The notes below the pieces were generated by a model that saw only the letters and a program-made list of their open reading frames with translations, was not told the origin of the DNA and made no database searches. The position numbers and the translations under genes are program-made. Below, piece after piece: positions 7,007 to 39,933 of a stretch of 42,573 bases of DNA. Each line of letters opens with the position of its first letter. Within the stretch, counting starts at the first letter, position 1. The DNA is from a bacterium (lineage in GTDB: Bacteria; Bacteroidota; Bacteroidia; Sphingobacteriales; Sphingobacteriaceae), in the NCBI GenBank assembly GCA_046305595.1, contig JBKCCA010000461.1, forward strand, positions 1-42,573. The letters are read 5' to 3'.

Positions 7007-7100
7007 AGATTCAGAATTAAAGATTCAGAATGCTAATTAAGAGTTAAGAATTAAGGGTTAAGAACGATTTCGCAGTACTCAATACGCAGTACTCAATACG
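7007..7100. repeat. Heptad-periodic simple-sequence tract made of three different 14-mers, each tandemly duplicated
   Basis: AGATTCAGAATTAA / AGATTCAGAATGCT (7007..7034), TTAAGAGTTAAGAA / TTAAGGGTTAAGAA (7037..7064), CGCAGTACTCAATA x2 (7071..7098). One continuous 7-nt register runs across 94 nt. Confidence 0.85.
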
Positions 7101-8580: not shown

Positions 8581-8668
8581 GTATTAAGTATTATGTACAA
8601 AGTATTAAGTACATGATACCTAATACCTAATACCTAATACCTAATACATATTACTTTGTACTTAATAC
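8581..8668. repeat. Heptad-periodic tract forming an imperfect palindrome around (ATACCTA)x4
   Basis: 13 heptads in one register: GTATTAA GTATTAT GTACAAA GTATTAA GTACATG ATACCTA x4 ATACATA TTACTTT GTACTTA ATAC. GTATTAAGTAC (8602..8612) is the reverse complement of GTACTTAATAC (8658..8668). GTACAAAGTA (8595..8604) is the reverse complement of TACTTTGTAC (8652..8661). Confidence 0.85.
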
Positions 8669-8675
8669 AATTTTT

Positions 8676-14180: not shown

Positions 14181-15422
14181 ATGAATTTACCTTTTTACAT
14201 AGCCAAGCGATATTTATTTTCAAAGAAATCGACACAAGCGATTAATATCATTTCCTTGATTTCAATCATTGGTGTATGTGTAGGTTCAGCTGCATTGTTT
14301 ATAATTCTTTCTGTATTCAACGGTTTCGAAGATTTAAATTTAAAATATTACAAGCAGTTAAATCCAGATTTAAAAATACAAGTCGCTAACGAATCTGATT
14401 TTAATTATGCGGATGTTCAAAAATTTTTAACTGATTACAATTCAAAAGCATCAGTAGTACGTGTGTATGAAAATCATGCAATGTTAAAGTATTTACAAAC
14501 TCCTTATTATTCTAAAATTAAAGGAGTGAGTGAAGAATTTTTGAAGCAGAAAAATTTAAAAGAATCTTTATCGGCAGGTGTATTTAAATTTAAAGATGAG
14601 TATACCGAATACATGGTAATGGGTATGGGCATTGCGTATCAATTAGGTATTGATGTTACTCAAAATATTCAATCGGTAAGTGTGTTCGCGCCCAAGCCTG
14701 AGAAAAAAATTAATATGCTAGATCCGAGTGCTGCTTTAAACAGAGTGGAACTTTATCCGGCTGGAATGTTTTCTGTGAAGCAAGACATGGATCAAAATAC
14801 TTGTTTTGTATCATTAGCAAAAGCAGAAGAATTATTTCAAACGAATGGAAATATAAATGCAATTGAATTTTATTTGAATGATGAAAAAGAGATGAATGCG
14901 ATAAAGTCAGAATTGATAAAAGTATTACCCTCAAAGTTCATAGTAAAAGATCGATTTGAATTAAACGAGATGCTCTACAAGGTATTAAATACAGAGCGTT
15001 GGGGAGTTTATTTGATTTTAACTTTTATATTAACTGTAGCTATTAGTAATATCATTGGAGCGATCACGATGCTGATTATTGATAAGAAAAAAGATATTGC
15101 CATTTTAAATACATTAGGATTAAGTAATGAACAAATTAGAAAAGTTTATTTAATACAAGGTTTGTTGATATCATTTATTGGAGTGATCATCGGATTACTA
15201 TTAGGATCAATATTTGTTTTCTTACAAGAAAAATATGGCATCATCAAAATCAGCGGTTCAGAAGATTTTTTAATACAAGCATATCCGATTAAATTAATTT
15301 ATAGAGATTACTTCTTGGTGTTTTTAACAGTGATGGGCATATCATTTATTGCTTCATGGTTTAGTTCAAAACAGAGCAATATATTAGCGAGTGAGATAAA
15401 AGAAAATATCAATAATGTATAA
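14181..15422 (+). CDS. FtsX/LolC/LolE-family ABC transporter permease
   Basis: 413 aa. N-terminal TM helix, large periplasmic MacB-like domain, three C-terminal TM helices (FtsX topology). ATG directly follows the stop of the MBL gene. Confidence 0.85.
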   Translation: MNLPFYIAKRYLFSKKSTQAINIISLISIIGVCVGSAALFIILSVFNGFEDLNLKYYKQLNPDLKIQVANESDFNYADVQKFLTDYNSKASVVRVYENHAMLKYLQTPYYSKIKGVSEEFLKQKNLKESLSAGVFKFKDEYTEYMVMGMGIAYQLGIDVTQNIQSVSVFAPKPEKKINMLDPSAALNRVELYPAGMFSVKQDMDQNTCFVSLAKAEELFQTNGNINAIEFYLNDEKEMNAIKSELIKVLPSKFIVKDRFELNEMLYKVLNTERWGVYLILTFILTVAISNIIGAITMLIIDKKKDIAILNTLGLSNEQIRKVYLIQGLLISFIGVIIGLLLGSIFVFLQEKYGIIKISGSEDFLIQAYPIKLIYRDYFLVFLTVMGISFIASWFSSKQSNILASEIKENINNV

Positions 15423-15427
15423 GTCAA

Positions 15428-16075
15428 TTATGCAATCTCATTCAAAAGCGAAACACTCGTATTCTTAAGACTTTCTAAAGCAAGAGGTATATTCCAGTTC
15501 TCGCGATTTCTTCTTTCGACATAATTTGAAATGGCTCTAATTTGTATACAAGGAATGTTCATTTTCATGCAAACGTAGAAGAAGGCTGCACCTTCCATGC
15601 TTTCTATTTGCGGACTCAATAATAAACTTGTTTTCATGATAGAGTCATTATTACCATGAACTTTGTTGACGGTGATAGCTCTCACTTGTTTTAGTTTTTG
15701 CAAAGTAGAGAGCTCTTTATTGAGATGGGGTTTAAGTTCACCCCATACAAATGGATGCTCATCATGACGTTGAAGTCCTAATTGTATCAAACTCAAAAAA
15801 TCATCACCATCTTCAGCTCCCATTTCAGAAAACAAATCTTTACGCACCCAAACACAATCACCAATTTCAATATTTCTGTCGAACGCACCAGCGATACCAA
15901 GATTTATGGCATAATCGTATGATTTATTACTAAGACATTTTGTAAGCTCGAAGGTAGTGTTGATCATGCCCACACCAGTGATAAGAAAGTCAATATTGAC
16001 ATTTTCTTTCACAGGGATGTACCAGCGCATTTCAGCGATTTCGAATTCTGTAGCAGAAACGATAAGGATGTTCAT
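15428..16075 (-). CDS. mqnB: Futalosine hydrolase (PNP/UDP phosphorylase fold, menaquinone futalosine pathway)
   Basis: 215 aa. MNILIVSATEFEI... N-terminus, GIAGAF and MEGAAFFYVC motifs characteristic of the MqnB/MTA-nucleosidase-like family. Confidence 0.7.
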   Translation of the reverse strand: MNILIVSATEFEIAEMRWYIPVKENVNIDFLITGVGMINTTFELTKCLSNKSYDYAINLGIAGAFDRNIEIGDCVWVRKDLFSEMGAEDGDDFLSLIQLGLQRHDEHPFVWGELKPHLNKELSTLQKLKQVRAITVNKVHGNNDSIMKTSLLLSPQIESMEGAAFFYVCMKMNIPCIQIRAISNYVERRNRENWNIPLALESLKNTSVSLLNEIA

Positions 16076-16087
16076 AAAATAAAAATA

Positions 16088-16110
16088 GCGATTCTTTAGA
16101 AAAGAATCGC
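16088..16110 (-). terminator. Orphan intrinsic-terminator-like hairpin immediately upstream of the mqnB start
   Basis: GCGATTCTT (16088..16096) pairs with AAGAATCGC (16102..16110). On the minus strand it is followed by TATTTTTATTTT and then the mqnB ATG (16075). No minus-strand gene lies upstream. Confidence 0.4.
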
Positions 16111-16127
16111 AGAATTATTTTAATACC

Positions 16128-16273
16128 TCTTTTTTACCTTTTAATTTTGTAAATGAAAAAAGTAATTAGCTCCTCTGCAATAATTTAATAAGTACAACGG
16201 TCATTAATTTGTATTTTCTATTGTCATTATCACACCTTTTCATTTCAAAATTTAAAAGGTTGGGGAGATTTTT
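16128..16273 (+). repeat. Long-stem palindromic element, copy A (same family as 27996..28146 and 28190..28314)
   Basis: Arms 16136..16159 and 16237..16260 pair with two 1-nt bulges. G-U-rich outer extension 16128..16134 / 16262..16268 (16135 and 16261 form a T:T mismatch), then T5 (16269..16273). 42 nt (16150..16191) are identical to 28020..28061. TATCACACC lies just before the 3' arm. Confidence 0.8.
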
Positions 16274-16362
16274 CGGGCGTAGATAAGGTCTTTGGTTTTA
16301 CTTTAAGCACTAAGCTTCACTATTAGCATCCCTTAAATACTCGCATAAGTCTTCGAAATATT

Positions 16363-16390
16363 CTAGTCACTAGTCACCGGTTACCAGTCA
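16363..16390. repeat. Heptad-periodic simple-sequence tract
   Basis: CTAGTCA CTAGTCA CCGGTTA CCAGTCA, about 55 nt upstream of queD. Confidence 0.75.
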
Positions 16391-16418
16391 CATTATCACG
16401 ATTCAGCCAAAAAACCCT

Positions 16419-16426
16419 TATCTTTG
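16419..16426 (+). promoter_or_regulatory. Candidate Bacteroidota -7 promoter box for queD-folE
   Basis: TATCTTTG matches TAnnTTTG, 18 nt upstream of the queD ATG (16444). No clear -33 element was seen. Confidence 0.3.
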
Positions 16427-16443
16427 TTATTCAAACCTAAAAA

Positions 16444-16854
16444 ATGATTCACATCACACGTAGAGAGCGTTTTAATGCCGCTCATAAATTGTTTAGAGAA
16501 GATTGGTCGCAACAGAAAAATGCGGAAGTTTTTGGTAAATGCTCGAATCCGAATTGGCACGGACATAATTATGAATTGTATGTTACGGTTAAGGGTGAGA
16601 TAAATCCGGAGACTGGTTTCGTTATCGACTTAAAAGAATTGCGCGACATAATTAACAAAGAAGTGATCGATAAATTAGATCATAAGAATATTAATATCGA
16701 TGTTGATTTTATGCAAGGCAAAATGGCTTCGACTGAAGTGTTGGCGGTAGAGATTTGGAATCAATTAGTTGGACCTATTTCTAAAACGGAAGCTGTATTG
16801 CATAGCGTGAAGTTGTACGAAACTGAAAATAATTTTGTAGAATATTATGGATAA
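16444..16854 (+). CDS. queD: 6-carboxy-5,6,7,8-tetrahydropterin synthase / 6-pyruvoyl-tetrahydropterin synthase family
   Basis: 136 aa. [18 protein letters not shown] and ETENNFVEY motifs of the PTPS/QueD fold. Confidence 0.85.
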
Positions 16855-26715: not shown

Positions 26716-27990
26716 ATGAAAAAGATAATCATAATCATATTAATATTTGTTACGAGTGTAAATGCTTGGGCACAAAAGCCAAGTAAGGTGCAGAGTAAGA
26801 AAATAATTATCAAGAACGCTACCATCCACATTGGTAATACACAAGTTATTGAAAATGGTACTGTCGTTTTTGAAAAAGGAATTTTAACCTATGTAGGTAA
26901 TGCGAATCAATCAGAGACGGGTGCAGAAGTTATTGATGCAACGGGTAAACATATTTATCCGGGTTTGATCGCACCCTTTACAAAAATCGGATTAGAGGAG
27001 ATTGAATCAATAAGAGCAACGCTTGATTATGCTGAGGTAGGCAATACGAATCCGAATGTTCGTTCAATTATTGCATACAATACAGATTCAAAAATAATTC
27101 CGACTATTAGATCGAATGGTATTTTAACGGCATTGATAGTACCTCAAGGAGGATCGATACCAGGTACATCATCATTGGTAAAATTAGACGGATGGAATTG
27201 GGAAGATGCAGTGTACAAAACAGATTTGGCGGTGCATGTAAATTGGCCGCGTATGCGTGTGTTCAATGCTTGGTGGGCGCCACCTGCAGAAGAGCAGCGT
27301 AAAAATTCAGAATCAGCGATGTTAGAGTTGAAGAAATTTTTTGATGAAGCATATGCTTATTCAAAAATGTCGAGTGTTGCTGAAAAGAATTTAAAGTTTG
27401 AAGCAATGAGAGATATTTTTTCAGGTAAGAAAAAATTAATCATTGCAGTAGGTTCAGCAAAAGAAATTACTTCGGCAGTAAACTTCTCGAAATCATATGG
27501 AATCACTCCGGTTTTAGCAGGAGGTAATGATGCAATTACAACCTTAGATTTTATAAAGGAGCAAGGTGTAAGTATGATATTAGAGCAACCACATGCATTG
27601 CCAGATAGAGATGATGAAGATGTTGATTTACCATTTAAGCGTGCAAGTATTTTGAAAGCTAAAGGTATACCCTTCTGCTTATCGATAGATGGTAGCTGGC
27701 AACAACGAAACTTGCCATTTATGGCAGGTACTGCAGCAGCATACGGATTAACGAAAGAAGAAGCATTGAAAGCAGTTTCATTAGATGCAGCCGAGGTCTT
27801 AGGAGTATCAAAAACACTAGGCTCATTAGAAATAGGTAAAGATGCAACTTTATTAATTTCTGATGGTGACTTATTAGACATGCGTACATCGAATGTAACA
27901 CGAGCTTTTATTAAGGGTGCGGAGATTGATTTAGATAATAAGCAGAAGGAATTGTATAGATTGTATTCGGAGAAATACAATCTGAAATAA
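26716..27990 (+). CDS. Secreted amidohydrolase-family protein (HxH motif not evident)
   Basis: 424 aa with a signal peptide. Composite-domain N-terminus (ATIHIGN...ATGKHIYPGLIAPFTKIG) and C-terminal LGSLEIGKDATLLI resemble the upstream gene. Confidence 0.8.
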   Translation: MKKIIIIILIFVTSVNAWAQKPSKVQSKKIIIKNATIHIGNTQVIENGTVVFEKGILTYVGNANQSETGAEVIDATGKHIYPGLIAPFTKIGLEEIESIRATLDYAEVGNTNPNVRSIIAYNTDSKIIPTIRSNGILTALIVPQGGSIPGTSSLVKLDGWNWEDAVYKTDLAVHVNWPRMRVFNAWWAPPAEEQRKNSESAMLELKKFFDEAYAYSKMSSVAEKNLKFEAMRDIFSGKKKLIIAVGSAKEITSAVNFSKSYGITPVLAGGNDAITTLDFIKEQGVSMILEQPHALPDRDDEDVDLPFKRASILKAKGIPFCLSIDGSWQQRNLPFMAGTAAAYGLTKEEALKAVSLDAAEVLGVSKTLGSLEIGKDATLLISDGDLLDMRTSNVTRAFIKGAEIDLDNKQKELYRLYSEKYNLK

Positions 27991-27995
27991 ATTTT

Positions 27996-28146
27996 TCTTT
28001 CTTCACCTTTTAAATTTTCTAAATGAAAAAAGTAATTAGCTCCTCTGCAATAATTTAATAAAATGCAACGGTAATTACTTTATATTTTCTATTAATATTA
28101 TCACACCTTTTCATTTAGAAAATTTAAAAGGTTAGAGAGATTTTTT
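27996..28146 (+). repeat. Long-stem palindromic element, copy B
   Basis: Perfect 25-bp arms 28005..28029 / 28108..28132. Outer 7-bp extension 27996..28002 / 28134..28140, then T6 (28141..28146). Inner stem AAGTAATTA 28030..28038 / TAATTACTT 28072..28080. Starts 6 nt after the amidohydrolase stop. Confidence 0.85.
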
Positions 28147-28155
28147 CTTAGTAGT

Positions 28156-28183
28156 ATATTCTAGTAACTAGTTACTAGAATAT
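28156..28183. repeat. Perfect 28-bp palindrome inside a heptad-periodic tract (28147..28181)
   Basis: ATATTCTAGTAACT|AGTTACTAGAATAT; every position pairs. Heptads CTTAGTA GTATATT CTAGTAA CTAGTTA CTAGAAT. Lies between element copies B and C. Confidence 0.9.
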
Positions 28184-28189
28184 CGCATA

Positions 28190-28314
28190 AGCCTTTGGAA
28201 TTTTTGAATACAAGGGTGTGATACGTTTACAGAGAGAAATACTCTCAAGCAGTTATTCTAATTATATAAGTTCGTACTAGGCTAATAACTATTGTATTCA
28301 AAAAGCCAAAGGCT
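28190..28314 (-). repeat. Long-stem palindromic element, copy C (diverged, opposite orientation)
   Basis: Arms 28190..28213 / 28292..28314 pair 9 + 14 bp around a 2x1 internal loop. Reverse-complemented it reads 5' arm - TAGTTATTAGCC - ... - TATCACACC - 3' arm, the same layout as copies A and B. Ends 9 nt after the helicase stop codon. Confidence 0.75.
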
Positions 28315-28323
28315 GAAAAAACT

Positions 28324-31300
28324 TTACTCTTCATCTGATTTCATTATATCTTGTTCTTTAAAGTTTGTTTTGACAAACTTACACCAGTGACACTCTTCTT
28401 TACCGCAACCTTCATTGAATTCGTAGTTTAATATTTTTTCGTAGGTAGTGGTTATCTGGTTTTTTACAATTTCAATATCTTCTTTAGTGATAATTACTTT
28501 CTCTGTTGGATAGTTTTCTTTCTCAACTTTCTTTTCTGTTGTTTTTGTTTTATTTAAATCAATAGGTTCAACAAATTCGAATTGAGTACTTACTACTTCC
28601 CAATCTTTGCTTCGATCGTTATCGATAAGTATTTTATAGAATACTGCTTGACGCCAGTAGTCGCCACCAATTTCGTTTGCTTCATTTGGTGCTTTTAATT
28701 TTTCTAATGCGTTTTTGTATTTACCAGTTTTGTAATCAACAACATTTATTTCTTTGCCATTGAATTCAATTTTGTCGAGGTTACCTTTTATAGGCACTCC
28801 GTTTACTTCAACGTTTTTAACAGGATGTTCAGTCAATGTTATTTTGTTCCATGTTTCTACATGACTATCATAGTATTGAGGTAAAATCTTTTCACCATAT
28901 TCTAATCGACGCTTGTAATCTTCTTTAGTAAATGAATCTCTATTTCTGTTCATATACCATTTGAATTGATCTACTAAATAATTTGAACCAGCAAACTCTT
29001 CGTTGTTTTCTTTTAGGTTCTTAAATAATTTATTTAGGGCCCAATGCACTGCTTGTCCGAAGGTAGCGCTCGGACTCTTACCTGATGGTACTCTCACTAA
29101 ATTTTGGAAATAGAATTTCAATGGGCAATCGAGGTAATTACTTAGATGGGTAACACTTAGAGTATAACCTTCTAATAAAACATCAATATAATTTTTATCG
29201 ATTAATTGAATAACAGGTTTCTCTTGTTCTAAGAAAGGGATACTTTGGAATTTAAATAGTAAATCATCATTAAGTTTTACTGTTTCGAATTCATAGTCAT
29301 CAGACTGTCTAATTTCTGCAATAAATTGTGATGATTCTAAATCTTTACCCGATGCATCTTTTGCGCAATATGAAATATTTAAAGAGTGTTTTGCACGAGT
29401 AAGAGCAACATAAAATAAGCGGCGAGATTCTTCAAGTTCAGATCCCTCAACAATACTTGTGAAAATATTATCGGGGAATGAGTATTCTCTATTGCCACCT
29501 TTTTTAACATCCCATACTTTTTTATTTACGGAGATGATATAAACGTAATCAAACTCTAATCCTTTAGAACCATGTGTGGTCATAAAGTTTACTCCGTTTT
29601 CATTATAACTAGATTTATTTATTTCTAATCGAATACCATTTTTAATCATGAGGTCGATCATCTCTACAAAGCCAGCAACATCCATCTCATGATTTTTTCT
29701 ATTCTCTTCTTTTAGGTAATTGAATAGTGTACTGAGCACATCCATATAATAAGCTCTATTCTCTGAATGCATGATATAATTTAATATACCGGCACGAAGA
29801 ATTATTTTTTCGAAGAGTTCTTGAAGAGTGTAATTATAACTTTCCTTGATCCAGTATTCAATATCAGCAGAAAATATTTTTATAGATGTTTCTATTTCTT
29901 GATTAAATAAATCAGGTTTTTCAGCTTTTGCTAACTCAGATAATTTTTTGCGGATGGAAGTTTTCTGTTTGTATGATTCATGAGCAACATCCACAGAAAT
30001 TTTAGCGATATCTATAGGTGCTAGATCAAAGAAATCATAATGCATGATTTCAAATAACAATTGGTCACCACTATATGGAGTATCTCTTTCAGATGCGATG
30101 TATCTTAAAATATTGATGATTTTTTCAGTGAAGGCAAGCGATAAAATATCTTCTTTTCTTTTAATGTTAATTCCGATATTATCTATTTGGAGGTAGTTTA
30201 CGAGTTCAGCTGCCTGTGCGTGATTTCTATATAATACAGCAATCTCTTTTGGCTCAACTCCATTTTTTATTAATGTTTTAATCTCTTCACCAATATGAAC
30301 CAGCTCATGCATCGGTGTTTCGTATTCACGGATGAGAGGTTTTTTTGTCATGTTGCTATACAGCTCATTACTAGCTAATAGATTTTTATCTAGGTGGAGA
30401 TGTTTAGTCAAACGCTCAAAGTTATTTTCGATTAATGTTTTAGAGACGTTTAAAACAGATTGTGTAGAGCGGTAATTATTCGTTAAAACTATTTTATGTA
30501 AAACCTCTGCGTATTCATTAGCATAATCTAATATATTATTGATGTTAGCACCTTGAAAACGATAAATAGATTGATCGTCATCACCTACTACGAATACATT
30601 CGGATGGTCCCAATAAGAAATTAATAATCTAAGAATTTCATTTTGTGATCCGCTGGTATCTTGATATTCATCTACTAAAATGTATTGATATTTCTCTTGA
30701 TAATTTCTCAAAAGATTTTCGTCAGACTTGAATGCGTTGAGTACCCAAACAATCATATCGTCATAATCATAACGATTGAGTTCTTGCATTTTTTTTAGGT
30801 AACGAGGATATTCGTTGATAGCAGCTTTTAATAAATCTAATTTGTCAGTGATTTTGTTGACATCATTAATTTTAACATCACCGGCTTTTATTCCTGTTTT
30901 TGCGTTAGCTTTTTTATAAATGAATTCATCTCTTGTGGGTAAATATTTTATGTATAGGTCTATTTTCTCTAATAGAAAATCGATCGTCCAGTTTTCTTTC
31001 TTCATTGTAGAATAAAGATTTTTCATTCTACTCGATTCGAAGTAGACATCCCCGGTATATTTTTTAAGTTTAGAATTATTAGGTAGCGTATCAATTAAAT
31101 CTTTGAAGAGGGCAGCTTGTTCTAATTCAGAGATAGGTTCTAAATTAAGTTTACCGAAATAGTCGAGATTTTCTTGAATGATGTCATTACAAAATGCGTG
31201 GAAGGTATATATGTGTACGCGATAAGCATCTGGACCTATAAAATCATATAAACGCTTACGCATGGCAATAGTGCCAGCATCCGTATAAGTTAAACATAGA

Positions 31301-31497
31301 ATATTATGAGCATCAGTATCTGTCTCTAATAAGATCTGCCCAATACGAGCTGCAAGAATCTGTGTCTTACCAGTTCCTGGTCCGGCAACAACTAAAACAG
31401 GTCCTTCGATTTGAGTAACTGCCTCACGTTGTTTATCATTAAGGGTATTTAGGGCTTTTTGAAACTTTTCGTTGTTTCTTATTCTCTCTTTATCCAT
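28324..31497 (-). CDS. UvrD/PcrA-family ATP-dependent helicase fused to a C-terminal Cas4/AddB-like PD-(D/E)XK nuclease with Fe-S cysteines
   Basis: 1057 aa. Walker A AGPGTGKT, DEYQDTS, helicase motifs VI. C-terminal DKIEF...VVDYKTGK nuclease core, with Cys in YLDCPLKF plus CGKEECHWC. Confidence 0.88.
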   Translation of the reverse strand: MDKERIRNNEKFQKALNTLNDKQREAVTQIEGPVLVVAGPGTGKTQILAARIGQILLETDTDAHNILCLTYTDAGTIAMRKRLYDFIGPDAYRVHIYTFHAFCNDIIQENLDYFGKLNLEPISELEQAALFKDLIDTLPNNSKLKKYTGDVYFESSRMKNLYSTMKKENWTIDFLLEKIDLYIKYLPTRDEFIYKKANAKTGIKAGDVKINDVNKITDKLDLLKAAINEYPRYLKKMQELNRYDYDDMIVWVLNAFKSDENLLRNYQEKYQYILVDEYQDTSGSQNEILRLLISYWDHPNVFVVGDDDQSIYRFQGANINNILDYANEYAEVLHKIVLTNNYRSTQSVLNVSKTLIENNFERLTKHLHLDKNLLASNELYSNMTKKPLIREYETPMHELVHIGEEIKTLIKNGVEPKEIAVLYRNHAQAAELVNYLQIDNIGINIKRKEDILSLAFTEKIINILRYIASERDTPYSGDQLLFEIMHYDFFDLAPIDIAKISVDVAHESYKQKTSIRKKLSELAKAEKPDLFNQEIETSIKIFSADIEYWIKESYNYTLQELFEKIILRAGILNYIMHSENRAYYMDVLSTLFNYLKEENRKNHEMDVAGFVEMIDLMIKNGIRLEINKSSYNENGVNFMTTHGSKGLEFDYVYIISVNKKVWDVKKGGNREYSFPDNIFTSIVEGSELEESRRLFYVALTRAKHSLNISYCAKDASGKDLESSQFIAEIRQSDDYEFETVKLNDDLLFKFQSIPFLEQEKPVIQLIDKNYIDVLLEGYTLSVTHLSNYLDCPLKFYFQNLVRVPSGKSPSATFGQAVHWALNKLFKNLKENNEEFAGSNYLVDQFKWYMNRNRDSFTKEDYKRRLEYGEKILPQYYDSHVETWNKITLTEHPVKNVEVNGVPIKGNLDKIEFNGKEINVVDYKTGKYKNALEKLKAPNEANEIGGDYWRQAVFYKILIDNDRSKDWEVVSTQFEFVEPIDLNKTKTTEKKVEKENYPTEKVIITKEDIEIVKNQITTTYEKILNYEFNEGCGKEECHWCKFVKTNFKEQDIMKSDEE

Positions 31498-31683: not shown

Positions 31684-33654
31684 TTGAGGGTGAAATTCAA
31701 GCTATTACTTTTATTCTGTTTAATATTAAGCCATTACAAAGCAACAGCTGGTAAAACTGACACTGTTTTTATAGAAAATGACTTTGAGTATTTGGAGTTA
31801 GGAAAATCTTTAGACTATACATCTTCAGATGAAAATGTTATAGATATAGAAGACATAGTAAATGGTGGAGTATATTTCAAAAAAAATGATGCACCACTAT
31901 TAATATTAGCTGAAGATGAATATTTAGATGATTTATGGATCAAGATAGTTATCAGTAATAAATCAAGTTCAGATAGAAGATTGTATTTGTATTTAGATAA
32001 TGCATTAATTAATTATGTTGAGTATTTTGAGTATGAAGGGAAACAGCAATTAAGTCATCAATTAACTGGAGATGCATTTCCAATATAAGAGAGATTGATT
32101 CAATACCGCAATCCGATTTATAATATCAAAGTAGCATATAATCAAACGAAGACGATATATTTATTATTTAAGTTAAAGGGTAGAAAAATACATACTCCTT
32201 TACAATTGTATTCACAAGACAGGTTAATTGAACATATATCAAAGAAAGAATCGAATATTTCATTTTATTATGGAATATTAGCAGCATTATCTGCATTATC
32301 ATTTATGTTTTTCTTTTTAATAAAAAGAAAATGTATACATCTATTTTGCATCATATTTAACATCACAAACATTATTGCAGTTATCAACGAGCGGATTTGC
32401 GGCGATATATATTTGGCCTGATTTTACATTTTGGGCAGATCGATCGGTGCCGATATTAATGTCGTTAACGATAATATCAGGACATTCATTTTTGTTAGCG
32501 TTTGTAGATCGCAATAAATTTAAGAGGTGGCAAGTAGTATTAATTAAAGTATATCAAGTATTTGCTGTATTTGTTATACTGGGTTCATTATTTGAAGGTG
32601 ATATTTATTATGCATCAATTTGGTTATTGTATAGAATGATACCACCATTCTATTTTGGCTTAATCATATTAGCAATATATTTCTTTGCAAAAAATTATTT
32701 ACCAGCTCGATTCTTTGTATTGGGCATTATAGGTTCTTTTATAAGCATTTTTTACGATAATGTTTTATTCAATAATGAGAGAGCACAATAATGTATTTAC
32801 AAATGAATATGTACTTTTTGGTGAAGTACTAAATTCTACAATGTTAACATTAGCTCTGTTAGACAGGTTTAGGTTTTATAAGGGAGAGAAAGATAAAATA
32901 CAGTTGCAAATGATTGATCAATTAGAGGAGCTAAACAAATACAGAGAGAACATTAATAAAGATTTATCAGAAAAAATTTCAGAGAAAACGAAAGAGTTGA
33001 ATCAAAAACAATATGAAGTAAAGAGAGCATTATTATTGGGTGAAGAACAAGAGCGTAAAAGAATTGCAACAGAATTACATGATGGTATGGGGAGTATGCT
33101 TTCTACTTTAAAACTGAATGCTGAGTCGATAGAATTAGATGATAAAAATTTAAGTGATAAAGAATTAATAGCCTATAAAAACATTATAGAATTAATAGAT
33201 AAAGCCTGCATTGAGTTGAGGAATATATCTCATAATATGCTACCAACGGGTATGGAGCAATTCGGACTTATACAATCATTACAATCGATATTAAAGAAGA
33301 TAAATACTTCTAGTGAGATAAATTTCAATTTAGATACCTATAATTTAAATGAGAGGTTTAATAGAGAATTAGAATTATCATTGTATAGAATTACATTAGA
33401 GTTGATTAATAATATTATCAAGCATTCAAATGCAAAGAACGCTACCACCCAGCTAATAAAAAACGAAGAAAGTATCACGTTGATGGTAGTTGATGATGGT
33501 ATTGGATTTGAATAAAATAAAAGAAGGAATGGGTTTACATAATATCAAATCGAGAGTTGATGTTTTTAACGGTAAACTTACTATTGATACACAACCTGAG
33601 AGAGGAAGTACATTTATTATCGAAATACCTATTTATGAAAAAGACTTCTTATAA
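31684..33654 (+). pseudogene. Disrupted 7TMR-DISM-type sensor histidine kinase (HisKA_3 + HATPase_c)
   Basis: Five ORF fragments rejoin into one protein. In-frame TAA at 32086..32088 (GDAFPI*ERLIQY). Frameshift in the A-run 32322..32331. Frameshift in the T6 run 32748..32753. Frameshift near 33507..33513 (DDGIGF | NKIKEGMGLHNIKSRV...IEIPIYEKDFL*). H-box RIATELHDGMGSML is present. Confidence 0.8.
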
Positions 33655-34346: not shown

Positions 34347-37300
34347 TTAACTACAACCTCCTTGAGTACCGCAGTTTAAGCATTTGTAGCAAGTTCCTGA
34401 ACGTAGCATGATGTGACCACAGTTCGTACATGCTGGAGCATCTGATTGACCTCCACCTGAGATATCAAGTACAGGCTTTTTAGCTGCGAATTCAGCTGAT
34501 GTAATTTCTGCCTTTGGAGCAGCAGCTTGTTGAGGAGCAGAGTCAAATGTGTTTGACACATCTGGATTCTGGTCTTCATCGATCATCTGCGGGTTACCAA
34601 TAACCGCATTTTGTTCAGTAATTACATGAACTAAATCTGTTCTGTTTAGGTATTCGTAACCTAACATTCTGAAGATGTAGTCGATGATTGATGTAGAGCT
34701 CTTGATATTATCGTGACCTGATACCATACCTGATGGTTCAAAACGAGTGAATGCAAATTTCTCTACAAACTCTTCTAATGGAACACCGTATTGTAAGCCC
34801 ACAGATATTGCAATTGCAAAACAGTTCATTAAGGATCTAAACGTTGCACCTTCTTTGTGCATGTCTACGAAGATTTCTCCTAATGTACCATCTTCATATT
34901 CACCTGTACGAACATATATTGTTTGTCCGCCTACAGCTGCCTTCTGTGTAAAGCCTCTACGCTTAGCTGGTAAGCTTTTCTTCTCTACAACACTTGACAA
35001 TTGACGTTTGAAGGTTGTGTCTTTTGAACGCTCTAAGATTGCTCTTGCAGCTTCTAAAACTTGCTCTGGTGTTAAATCACTTAATCTAACATTTGCAGCT
35101 TCGCCTAATACTTCGTCAACAGTTTCAATTTTATCGTCAGCAGATGCTTTAGTTGATAATGGTTGAGATAGTTTACATCCGTCTCTATATAATGCGTTAG
35201 CCTTTAGGCCTAACTCCCAACTTAATTGGTAGCAATCTTTAATTTCATCAACACTTGCTTCGTTTGGCAAGTTGATTGTTTTAGAAATAGCACCTGATAA
35301 GAAAGGTTGTGCAGCAGCCATCATTTTGATGTGACCGTGTGCATGGATGTAACGTTGACCGATTGAACCACAACGATTCGCACAATCAAAAATCGGATAA
35401 TGTTCTTCTTTTAAGAAAGGAGCACCTTCGATTGTCATAGTACCACATACATATGTATTAGCTTCAGAAATTTGAGTTCTGCTGAAACCTAATGCTTGTA
35501 GCAAGTTGAAGTTTTGTGCATTGTACTGCTCAGGTTTGAAACCTAAACGCTTCAAGCAATCTTCACCTAATGACCAAACGTTGAATGCAAAACTAATTTC
35601 AAATGCTGATACCATTCCTTTATCAACTCTTTCTAAATCATCTTGTGTAAATCCTTTAGTTGCTAATGATTCGAAGTTGATATGTGGTGCACCTTGAATA
35701 GTTGCATAACCTTTTGCATAGTTTACAATTGTATCAATTTGATGCTCATCATAACCTAAGTTTAATAAAGTTGCAGGTACTGCTTGGTTAATAATTTTGA
35801 AGTAACCACCACCTGATAATTTTTTGAACTTCACTAATGCGAAGTCTGGCTCGATGCCTGTAGTATCACAATCCATCACCAAACCAATTGTACCTGTTGG
35901 AGCAATTACAGTAGTTTGTGCGTTACGGTATCCGTATTTCTCACCTAACTCAACTGCCTTGTCCCATGCATTGCATGCTGCTGATAATAAATAATCAGGA
36001 CAGTCTTTAGGGTCGATGCCCGGAGGCGCAATCTCTAACCCTTCGTAAGCATCAGTTGCATTGTATGCTGCATAACGGTGATTACGCATTACACGTAACA
36101 TGTCTTGTTTGTTCTCTTCGAATTTAACGAAGGGACCTAAGTGTTTAGCCATTTCTGCTGATGTTGCATAAGCTACACCTGTCATGATCGCTGTAATAGC
36201 ACCACCTAATGCACGACCTTTATCGCTATCGTAAGCTATACCAGCAACCATTAACATTGAACCTAAGTTCGCATATCCTAATCCTAATGTTCTGTACTCG
36301 TATGATAATTGAGCAACATCTTTTGATGGGAATTGAGCCATCAATACTGAAATCTCTAATACCATTGTCCAGATTTTGCAGATATGCTCAAAACCTTTTA
36401 CATCAAACTCTAATGTTTGTTCATTGAAGAAGTGACGTAAGTTTACAGATGCTAAGTTACATGCAGTGTTATCTAAGAACATGTATTCAGAGCAAGGGTT
36501 AGAAGCGTTGATTCTTCCGCCTTGCGGACATGTATGCCATTCGTTGATTGTAGTGTCGTATTGTACACCAGGGTCAGCGCAAGCCCAAGCAGCAAATGCG
36601 ATATCATTCCATAATTTTTCTGATGGAATAGTACCAACCACTTTACCATTTGTTCTACCTACTAATTCCCAATCTTTACCTTCTTCTAAAGCATAGAAGA
36701 ATGAATTAGGTATACGTACAGAGTTATTTGAGTTTTGTCCAGAAACAGTTCTGTAAGCTTCACCTTCATAGTCTGAAGAATAACCCGCTGCGATTAACGC
36801 TGCAACTTTTTTCTCTTCTTCAACTTTCCAGTTTACGAATCCTTCAATTTCTGGGTGATCTAAATCTAAACAAACCATTTTCGCAGCACGACGTGTTGTA
36901 CCACCTGATTTGATTGCACCTGCAGCTCTGTCACCAATTTTCAAGAATGACATTAAGCCTGATGAATATCCACCACCAGATAATTTTTCGCTTTCGCCAC
37001 GAATTCTAGAGAAGTTAGTACCTACACCAGAACCATATTTGAAGATACGCGCTTCACGTACCCAAAGATCCATAATACCACCTTCGTTAACCAAATCATC
37101 ATCAACTGATAAAATGAAACATGCGTGTGGCTGTGGACGTTCGTATGCTGAAGTTGATTTTTCTAATTTACCAGTTTCAGGATTCACAAAGTAGTGACCT
37201 TGTGGTTTACCTGTAATACCGTATGAAGAATATAAACCAGTATTAAACCATTGTGGTGAGTTAGGTGCAGCTAATTGACCTACTATTGTATAAACTAACT

Positions 37301-37661
37301 CATCATAAAATGCAGTTGAATCTTCTTCTGTTGCAAAGTATCCATAACGCTTACCCCAGTCTGTCCAGCAATTAGCCATACGATGCGCTACTTGCTTTAC
37401 TGATTTTTCTGAACCAGTTGTTCCATCCTCTAAAGGTACACCAGCTTTACGGAAATATTTTTGAGCTAAAATATCCGTAGCCACTTGTGACCATGAAGCG
37501 GGTACTTCTACATCTTTCATTTCAAACACTGCATCGCCCGCAGGGTTACGAATCACTGAAGTTCTTTTTTCATACGTGAATAAGTCATACGGACTTACTC
37601 CTTGTTGGGTGAAATAGCGATCAATTTTCATCCCTTTTCCTTTATTCTCTTTTTTGCTCAT
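34347..37661 (-). CDS. nrdJ: Adenosylcobalamin-dependent (class II) ribonucleotide reductase
   Basis: 1104 aa. Active-site segment [34 protein letters not shown]-terminal zinc-ribbon-like [21 protein letters not shown]. Confidence 0.93.
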
Positions 37662-37835
37662 AGTAATTATTTATTCGGGTAAGTTTAGGTTATTGATTAT
37701 GTTATTGTTAACGGTTAAAAAAAACTTACGGAGTTTTTAATCAAATTTAAGAGCCTGAGTAAGGCACATCAAATTGAGTTTTCCACATACAAAATGCTAA
37801 ACAAGGTCTGCACGAAGTAAATCGCTTTAAAATGC

Positions 37836-37877
37836 AGAAAACCAATGTTTTGCCTATGTGGAAAACATTGGTTTTCT
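37836..37877 (-). terminator. Terminator hairpin downstream of pyk
   Basis: AGAAAACCAATGTTTT (37836..37851) pairs perfectly with AAAACATTGGTTTTCT (37862..37877) around a 10-nt loop. On the minus strand it is followed by GCATTTTAAAG. A second 9-bp hairpin lies at 37884..37909, closer to the pyk stop. Confidence 0.65.
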
Positions 37878-39353: not shown

Positions 39354-39443
39354 AAAGTATTTTTTGTTTTATATTTCAAACCTAATCAATTTTTTTGACA
39401 AAGTGTACTAATTACACTAATTAACTTTTAACTCGGGATCAAA

Positions 39444-39478
39444 GTGTTTAGTCGTAAGTCGTAAGTCTTATGTAGGGG
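39444..39478. repeat. Heptad tract forming the left inverted repeat of the four-helix-bundle cassette
   Basis: GTGTTTA GTCGTAA GTCGTAA GTCTTAT GTAGGGG. Positions 39448..39473 match the reverse complement of 39908..39933 at 23 of 26 positions. Confidence 0.8.
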
Positions 39479-39576
39479 GTTAAGTTAACTATATAAAGTT
39501 TTATTCATTAAATTAATTATTAGTTTATTATTTAATATGGATTATATATAATCTATCATACTTAGGCATAATACTA

Positions 39577-39871
39577 ATGATTCAATTAATAAATTTATGT
39601 ACGAACAATTACAAAACATTAAAAGTTTGGCAATTATCACGTGAATTAACGAAAGATGTCTATGTGATCACAAAGAAATTTCCATCAGATGAGAAATGGA
39701 GTTTAATTAATCAACTTAGAAGGTGTAGTGTATCTGTGCTTTCAAACATTGCAGATTATAATCTCAAAGGACTTGGGTTATGTAGATGATCAAGCTGAAA
39801 AAGAGATTTTAGATAAGATTAGAGGAATACAGAATATGTTACATGGGTTAATTAAAAGTCTTGATTCTTAG
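39577..39871 (+). pseudogene. Four-helix-bundle protein (23S rRNA-intervening-sequence-type) with internal deletion and frameshift
   Basis: The N-terminal part, LKVWQLSRELTKDVYVITKKFPSDEKWSLINQLRRCSVSVLSNIA, fits the family pattern. The reading frame then breaks near 39755..39770. The family C-terminus KDLGYVDDQAEKEILDKIRGIQNMLHGLIKSLDS* continues in the +1 frame to the stop at 39869..39871. Roughly 35-40 central codons are missing. Confidence 0.7.
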
Positions 39872-39933
39872 GTCTTAGGTCGTAAGTCATATGTCGTAGG
39901 TCTTATGACATATGACTTAAGACATACGACTAA
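39871..39933. repeat. Heptad tract forming the right inverted repeat of the cassette, with a local hairpin
   Basis: Nine heptads in register: GGTCTTA GGTCGTA AGTCATA TGTCGTA GGTCTTA TGACATA TGACTTA AGACATA CGACTAA. Local hairpin AAGTCATATGTC (39884..39895) / GACATATGACTT (39907..39918). Confidence 0.8.

Follow-up and report, generated by a model that had tools for sequence, protein, structure and literature searches.

The 42,573-nt stretch of Sphingobacteriaceae DNA analyzed here (the whole of contig JBKCCA010000461.1, assembly GCA_046305595.1; 34% G+C), referred to below as the window, contains three copies (A, B, and C) of an intergenic element with a long stem. The elements are best described as a new family among the known bacterial hairpin repeats. 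With a probability of about 0.6, the three copies are members of a small, non-coding family of dispersed hairpin repeats that is restricted to one low-GC Bacteroidota lineage and whose copies are co-transcribed and can stand in for a terminator. They look like a repeat of the ERIC (enterobacterial repetitive intergenic consensus), REPIN, or MITE (miniature inverted-repeat transposable element) type rather than a new conserved RNA gene. We placed them with the dispersed hairpin repeats (ERIC, bcr1, Correia, RUP, SPRITE, and REPIN) because near-identical copies occur at different loci, copies are gained, lost, truncated, and replaced, and the unit is non-coding and forms a long hairpin. The literature on small hairpin repeats is rich for Proteobacteria, Firmicutes, and cyanobacteria but sparse for Bacteroidota.

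Copies B and C Between Two Convergent Genes

Copies B and C share the 333-nt spacer (27991-28323) between the convergent genes for an amidohydrolase (26716-27990, + strand) and a UvrD/PD-(D/E)XK helicase-nuclease (28324-31497, - strand). Copy B (27996-28146, +) is a long hairpin that starts 6 nt after the amidohydrolase stop codon. It consists of a 5' outer extension, TCTTTCT (27996-28002), a 25-nt 5' arm (28005-28029), a 78-nt loop (28030-28107), a 3' arm (28108-28132) that is the inverted-repeat partner of the first arm with 100% complementarity, and a 3' purine extension, AGAGAGA, followed by T6 at 28141-28146 (together 28134-28146). The 3' half of the loop contains AAC.G, T..T.TCT, and TATCACACC (28099-28107). 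In the minimum free energy fold the outer extension pairs with 28134-28140, and one of these pairs is a G.U; tracts homologous to the purine extension and T-run are found in all A/B-type copies. The perfect 25-bp arms and the 7-bp extension with its T6 had been described in a first-pass annotation of this DNA, and our inverted-repeat search and fold recovered them at the same positions.

Copy C (28190-28314, -) is likewise a long hairpin. In the minus-strand reading, its 5' arm lies at 28292-28314 and its 3' arm at 28190-28213, as seen by inverted repeat and fold, with a 78-nt loop (28214-28291) in between that carries TATCACACC at 28215-28223 (-). The covariance model matches 28182-28323 (-) with 88.8 bits. 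The arm coordinates given earlier stand, and the arms pair as 9 + 13 bp around a small internal loop, the second segment being 13 bp long and not 14 bp as annotated. Both copies fold far better than shuffled sequences (copy B: -44.4 kcal/mol, z = -10.3; copy C: -41 kcal/mol, z = -5.2), with none of 200 shuffles as good in either case. Exact matches of TATCACACC are confined in the window to the three elements, at 16228 (+), 28099 (+), and 28215-28223 (-). The annotation had each copy begin shortly after a stop codon in the sense of the gene it follows, which holds for B and C; copy A lies between divergent genes.

Between B and C there is a perfect 28-bp palindrome (14 + 14; 28156-28183) made of the heptamers TAGTAAC TAGTTAC TAG, also noted before and found again by the inverted-repeat search. 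This palindrome is a separate repeat class, outside the hairpin element, and has a related array at 16363-16391. The arrangement of B and C is unchanged in independent JGI, ENA, NCBI, and Logan assemblies and is therefore no assembly artefact. The elements do break metagenome assemblies, with several contigs terminating within an element.

Anatomy of the Family

Loci of relatives were retrieved via exact-protein look-ups of the neighboring genes and via the members of the amidohydrolase 90% cluster. Those homologues that carry a name from their source are Sphingobacteriales or Bacteroidota metagenome-assembled genomes. The Por_Secre_tail proteins encoded by relatives likewise place the organism in Bacteroidota. 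Five full copies (B', A1, A2, A3, and D) were recovered from these relatives, which gives a hand-curated alignment of eight full copies (A, B, C, B', A1, A2, A3, and D) from two loci, six of them closely related. The covariance model recovers all eight and a remnant in L099, and nothing more in 360 kb; with filters off, it detects no copy beyond A, B, and C in the 42.5-kb window. We thus did find the further copies that the first-pass annotation had called for, without the invariant terminal repeats and target-site duplications by which it would have recognized a plain MITE.

The element is about 125-140 nt long, with arms of 23-28 nt that contain zero to two imperfections per copy and a loop of 77-78 nt in all eight copies. 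Three motifs, AAC.G, T..T.TCT, and TATCACA.C, are invariant in 8/8 copies and all lie within the 3' half of the loop, where TATCACA(C/T)C directly adjoins the 3' arm in every copy. AGTWATTAGC, proposed earlier as a fixed loop motif, is present in A, B, and C; it is not fixed, as it reads AGCAATTAGC, AGCAATTAGA, and AGTAATTAGA in the copies of three relatives and is missing from D.

There are two or more arm types, A/B and C/D. Copies of the A/B type have a 5' pyrimidine tract, TCTTTTT (6/6 copies), which can pair, mostly via G.U, with a 3' purine tract (GGGGAGA; (G/A)7), and all of them finish with this purine tract and T4-T6. The arms of C and D are 60-70% common in sequence, and both copies are 46-53% identical to the A/B type overall.

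All six-frame open reading frames (ORFs) across the element are shorter than 33 aa, too short to retrieve other copies from protein databases. A small ORF that starts in the A/B-type 5' arm (MKKVISSSAII) was rejected, given that C and D have no start codon, there is no synonymous bias, and the stop position varies. The pattern GGTGTGATA-N52-62-GCTAATWACT gave matches in genome and metagenome contig collections that were all armless and hence due to chance; as AGTWATTAGC varies between copies, the pattern is too strict for this to imply that the family is absent elsewhere. BLAST of the spacer against plasmid and phage collections gave no match.

Covariation of the Arms

The long stem and its extension are paired in 98.7% of 230 cells of the eight-copy alignment, and in 39-70% when the registers are slid by 1-3 columns. 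Both-sided changes are present in 11/33 pairs (20 cells), and none of 500 shuffles reaches any of the pairing or covariation measures. The alignment was made to mirror the arms and so favors structure; the key facts are independent of it. The arms of B, A2, and A3 pair perfectly within each copy (24-25 bp) and mutually differ at four or more positions. Four arm positions differ between A2 and A3, a C-G pair is replaced by G-C in A1, and several double changes separate copies of different genomes at the same locus (A1, A3). The double changes include transversions, and A3 shows mirrored changes of homopolymer run length versus A2. The first-pass annotation was thus right that pairing is kept while the arm sequence changes.

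The inner stems, which had been reported to covary as well, do not. They are paired in 62.5 and 53.6% of cells across the eight copies, no better than slid registers, and the inner stems of B and C differ in loop position: the 3' half of the C stem aligns with AAC.G of B and not with the 3' half of the B stem. RNAalifold predicts the long stem only, and no consensus structure was found inside the 78-nt loop. No covariation beyond that of a simple palindrome is supported, with the inner stems failing and the long stem alone remaining.

Strong stem covariation would fit a structured RNA family of trans-acting small RNAs or cis-acting modules in 3'- or 5'-untranslated regions. In such a family, selection on RNA pairing would maintain the long stem, and the copies would be paralogous genes rather than mobile DNA. 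Function would then reside in the conserved, unpaired 3' half of the loop (AAC.G ... TTTCT ... UAUCACACC), which might serve as a seed or as a site of protein binding. Consistent with this, neither loop length nor the motifs change between arm types of otherwise only 46-58% identity, the model score is strand-specific (135.7 bits sense versus 40.6 antisense), and the outer extension can pair only by way of G.U on the strand carrying the motifs, with a U-run next to it. However, the long arm contains no G.U in about 190 cells, and its three mismatches are C.A, C/A, and A.A and not wobbles; one-sided compatible changes are absent from the long arm and all fall in the low-information extension. 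Because the long arm lacks any G.U, covariation gives no specific pointer to selection at the RNA level. The missing consensus structure in the loop also speaks against this explanation, as does the Rfam scan, which gave no match at gathering score in the window; sub-threshold matches at E <= 10 were at chance level, the best being eukaryotic miRNA and snoRNA models (E >= 0.29). The annotation had likewise recognized no named RNA family in the element. Together with the evidence from relatives given below, we regard a structured RNA family, including a functional loop surface, as rather unlikely.

The exclusively Watson-Crick pairs of the long arm, the double changes with transversions, and the mirrored run-length changes (A3 vs A2) would also suit a palindromic site acting at the DNA level. 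This could be a recombination or inversion substrate with a flipping loop, or a cruciform or protein-binding site, with arms matched by gene conversion or template switching. The spacing between arms is constant, and C (-) and D (+), from different species, have similar arms and the same spacer with opposite loop orientation. On the other hand, C/D orthology is not demonstrable, given flanks that cannot be aligned. A single orientation is seen in every independent assembly of the window organism, no recombinase gene was found nearby, and bulges or mismatches are tolerated in A, B', A1, C, and D. We consider such a site highly improbable.

In a family of dispersed hairpin repeats, two routes may keep the arms complementary: selection acting on the hairpin, or correction of one arm of the DNA palindrome with the other as template. 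Template-switch mutagenesis can correct DNA quasi-palindromes arm to arm, and we lean slightly toward templated correction in view of the strict Watson-Crick pairing and the mirrored run-length changes. Base-pair covariation alone cannot tell a structured RNA from a hairpin repeat, and covariation screens could mis-call elements of this type as novel RNA families. Compensatory changes are already known in present or former mobile hairpin repeats, specifically in bcr1 (PMC3184786) and in REPIN spacers (PMC3116915).

Gain, Loss, and Replacement of Copies Among Relatives

The spacer between the amidohydrolase and helicase genes has a different content in nearly every lineage (percentages give the amidohydrolase amino acid identity to the window). 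In L073 (83%) it is 45 nt long and holds only a GC-rich bidirectional terminator (GGCGGG..CCCGCC and a T-run), and in L111 and L112 (at least 90%) it has 70 nt and only a heptamer palindrome. The 140-nt spacer of L072 (94%) consists of a single element, D (+), with C-like arms, which spans from stop codon to stop codon and has T-rich tails on both strands. L090 (at least 90%) has the GC terminator followed by B', heptamers, and a single arm of C, the heptamer arrays being at the spot that matches the window palindrome 28156-28183. In L106-L110 (at least 90%) a B-type variant directly follows the stop codon, on contigs visible to 31 nt past it. The window itself has B, the palindrome, and C without the GC terminator, which is kept in L073 and L090 and missing in the window and the L106 lineage. 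The spacer thus contains 0, 1, 1.2, or 2 copies, and copies were gained, lost, and partly deleted at intergenic sites as close relatives diverged. These relatives, graded in their distance to the window, show copy gain and loss, replacement of a canonical terminator, and concerted arm evolution at single loci.

This pattern of gain, loss, and replacement indicates a history of insertion and deletion rather than a conserved RNA at the amidohydrolase/helicase spacer. The annotation had favored a structured RNA over a MITE-like repeat. That step finds no support in copies that are present, absent, truncated, or replaced in close relatives, nor in the 88% identity (127/145 positions) of copies A and B, whose loci are 12 kb apart. 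It is weakened further by the loss of a 5' arm in L099 and by the compensatory changes known from bcr1 and REPIN hairpins.

Presence and absence between relatives, together with the size of about 125-140 bp, the terminal inverted repeats, the non-coding and intergenic nature, and the long stem-loop fold, are features of MITEs (PMC3184786). A classic MITE would be a deletion derivative of an insertion sequence, moved in trans via its terminal inverted repeats, with ACCTTTTAAATTTT or AGCCTTTGG as candidate ends. However, none of the eight copies is flanked by direct repeats, and the terminal repeats vary while the loop motif is conserved. Concerted arm change in copies that stay at one locus is not explained by transposase recognition. 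No matching insertion sequence was seen, the sole one met (an rve transposase gene in L098) not having been compared with the arms, and the plasmid and phage collections were without a match. The elements are not filed as a MITE because target duplications were tested for and not found and no parent element is known; an origin as a classic MITE is, in our view, very doubtful.

Copy A and the mqnB/queD Spacer

Copy A (16128-16273, +; 115.9 bits with the covariance model) comprises an extension (16128-16134), a 5' arm (16136-16159), a loop (16160-16236) with TATCACACC at 16228-16236, a 3' arm (16237-16260), GGGGAGA (16262-16268), and T5 (16269-16273). It is located between two divergent genes, a futalosine-hydrolase-like (mqnB-like) gene (15428-16075, -) and queD (16444-16854, +), 52 nt upstream of the start codon of the former. 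A small hairpin, GCGATTCTTT-AGA-AAAGAATCGC (16088-16110), which is terminator-like on both strands, lies between this start codon and copy A and ends just 12 nt upstream of the codon.

Full copies A1, A2, and A3 occupy the same spacer in L093, L094, and L095, respectively. In L094 the 5' arm is duplicated in tandem, and L099 has a remnant from which the 5' arm and most of the loop are deleted. In species with an MqnB-like protein of 73 and 69% identity, the spacers measure 58 and 107 nt and contain neither the element nor the small hairpin. Between the window and L095, 4-fold degenerate sites of three flanking genes are saturated (84/176, 48% identical). Copy A and A3 are nevertheless identical at 111/143 positions (78%; binomial p = 2e-13 against the 4-fold-site rate), and the 52-nt block 16076-16127, including the small hairpin, matches at 49/52 positions (94%). 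The similarity ends directly after the T-run of copy A. With these identities so far above that of 4-fold sites, copy A, or the block containing it, has probably been under constraint, which is not absolute in view of the L099 deletion. The retention of copy A suggests use by the host, and if this function is true, the copy beside the mqnB-like gene is an example of domestication.

Conservation of copy A and the neighboring small hairpin well beyond synonymous sites is a point in favor of a structured RNA. The mixed contexts of the copies are at odds with it, as B, C, and D lie 3' of genes and A lies between divergent ones. The same holds for the Bacteroidota -7 box (TAnnTTTG), which was not seen by eye upstream of or inside any element. 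A scan for sigma-70 promoters found sites no more frequently than in shuffles. A perfect TAnnTTTG was found only for queD (TATCTTTG, about 16419-16426), plus one on the opposite strand at 16427-16434.

A domesticated hairpin with a sequence-specific function is a further explanation that we think unlikely. It could be a long-stem RNA whose UAUCACACC loop half is bound by a protein or target RNA, or, within the same low estimate, a DNA hairpin copied without terminal-repeat recognition. The DNA version would combine no target duplication, insertion just after terminator T-tracts, and one arm copied from the other. If such a module exists, the mqnB-adjacent copy (78% identity, with 94% for the small-hairpin block and 48% for synonymous sites) would be its functional archetype.

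The block 16076-16127 may function as an attenuator, belong to a promoter, or be a piece of the inserted unit. An FtsX-like permease gene (+) and the mqnB-like gene (-) converge 5 nt apart (15422-15428), which leaves no room for a terminator. Reading along the + strand past the permease operon, one first meets terminator-like structures in the small hairpin at 16088 and in element A. On the other side, an 88-nt segment between element A and a heptamer array (16275-16362) is present in the window, L094, and L099, absent in L093, and without trace in L096. The segment is unique within the window. It was considered as a decayed copy of the element and rejected, since there is no covariance model match and only the heptamer motif is common to the B-C spacer. 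As this segment is variable alongside the element and the arrays, the mqnB/queD spacer is a hotspot for insertions and deletions. A further rearrangement at this locus is seen in one relative (L098, 287-1126, and L100, 1-355), where an integrase-core (rve) transposase gene upstream of queD replaces the mqnB-like gene and element A.

Predicted Mobility and Terminator Role

As a dispersed repeat, the family would have spread by copying of a hairpin-forming unit, in the way of REPINs and MITEs. A copy just after a gene would be co-transcribed with that gene, and a stable stem with a U-run (A/B type and D) would form a hairpin at the 3' end of the transcript, acting as a terminator and/or as a barrier to RNase III or an exonuclease. 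In the window, B, the palindrome, and C would have replaced an ancestral GC-rich bidirectional terminator, and the copy beside the mqnB-like gene may have been put to use by the host.

This terminator or 3'-hairpin role is predicted from the U-runs, from the position right after stop codons, and from the fact that exactly those lineages whose spacer is filled by an element or a heptamer palindrome have lost the ancestral GC terminator. In B, B', the A series, and D, the stem is followed by T4-T6 or a T-rich tail. A consensus scan found no canonical terminator in 27800-28500, because the stems are AT-rich with large loops. RNase III could plausibly also cut a perfect 25-bp stem. Just past the end of the window, the same organism has a gene whose product carries Ribonuclease_3 and dsrm domains (L084).

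Several observations weigh against the family being mobile terminator-like repeats. No target-site duplication is present at any of the eight copies (adjacent direct repeats are 0-1 nt long), and no consistent direct repeat was found outside the outer extension either. The window contains no transposase and no parent element was found, so that mobility is deduced only from the distribution of the copies. The family is known from two loci only, and by conserving an asymmetric loop while its arms vary it inverts what is usual for MITEs. The stem of copy C is not followed by a T-run on either side, copy A has no gene upstream that would read into it in sense, and a terminator role is not general because the GC terminator precedes B' in L090.

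Comparison With Known Repeats

ERIC (~127 bp) and the bcr1 repeat of the Bacillus cereus group (~155 bp) are, like the present family, imperfect intergenic palindromes of similar size that are often found at gene 3' ends, are co-transcribed, as we predict for our elements, form one long stem-loop, and vary in distribution among related strains (PMC3184786). Base-pair compensatory changes are reported for bcr1, and ERIC affects mRNA decay (PMC3184786). There is no sequence similarity to either. Direct repeats (TA, or 5 bp) flank ERIC-type repeats and bcr1, whereas none were found here, and the present family combines arms that vary from one subfamily to the next with a fixed loop motif on one side.

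REPINs share two inverted ends of ~25 nt, a spacer of fixed length (71 bp in the GI type), and a hairpin in single-stranded DNA or mRNA; both-sided compensatory changes are common and classic target duplications are lacking, as in our elements (PMC3116915). REPINs are REP doublets mobilized by RAYT transposases, with invariant REP 16-mer ends that are each a small palindrome. In contrast, the arms described here are variable, a self-palindrome within the arm is found only in B, B', and A (3/7 tested 3' units), the conserved motif is one-sided, and neither the 42.5-kb window nor the listed neighbor genes of relatives include a RAYT gene. Because of the variable arms, the inconsistent self-palindromes, and the lack of a RAYT gene in view, we did not file the family as a REPIN.

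RNase III reportedly processes Correia hairpins. Terminator-like dispersed hairpin repeats resemble or act as a terminator or RNase III substrate at gene 3' ends (PMC3184786). The present family differs from these in its AT-rich 25-bp stems and 78-nt loop, with no compact GC hairpin, and in copy C, which has no U-run. Co-transcribed 3' hairpins with compensatory changes or a terminator-like shape are on record for ERIC, bcr1, SPRITE, and Correia (PMC3184786) as well as REPINs (PMC3116915). Structured RNAs in Rfam have in common with the elements a long covarying helix and conserved unpaired nucleotides, and no Rfam family reaches its gathering score.

Integron attC sites were rejected. GGTTAGAG and GGTTGGGG fail the final Y of the R''/R' cores (RYYYAAC ... 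GTTRRRY), the 5' side lacks an AAC core, and the flanking genes are syntenic housekeeping genes and not cassettes.

Other Features of the Window

Tandem arrays with a 7-nt period are found in at least seven intergenic regions (877-928, 7037-7100, 8581-8669, 16363-16391, 28156-28183, 39450-39467, and 39866-39930). Their units are GTGACTA, AGTAGCT, TTAAGAG, GTATTAA, ATACCTA, CTAGTCA, TAGTAAC, AGTCGTA, TCTTAGG, and TATGACA, and the arrays are often inverted, resulting in palindromes. The array upstream of queD is kept even in relatives without element A. Heptamer direct repeats have been described in a few Bacteroidetes and cyanobacteria (PMC4679880).

Another long hairpin (37778-37866; GTTTTCCACATA ... 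TATGTGGAAAAC, with a 65-nt loop) lies in the 5' region of a class II ribonucleotide reductase gene (34347-37661, -). This hairpin recurs almost unchanged in L077, L078, L081, and L082, has no Rfam match, and may represent a conserved leader element. The spacer after the pyruvate kinase gene (39354-39929) measures 576 nt in the window versus about 125 nt in relatives (e.g., L075). The extra DNA contains an ORF of 70 aa belonging to the 23S_rRNA_IVP/four-helix-bundle family (39577-39789), with heptamer arrays on both sides.

Finally, a gene for a 7TMR-DISM sensor histidine kinase (31684-33515) is split into three or four ORFs in several independent assemblies of the window organism. The corresponding gene is a single ORF of 650-655 aa in L073, L078, and L079, and the version in the window is probably a pseudogene.

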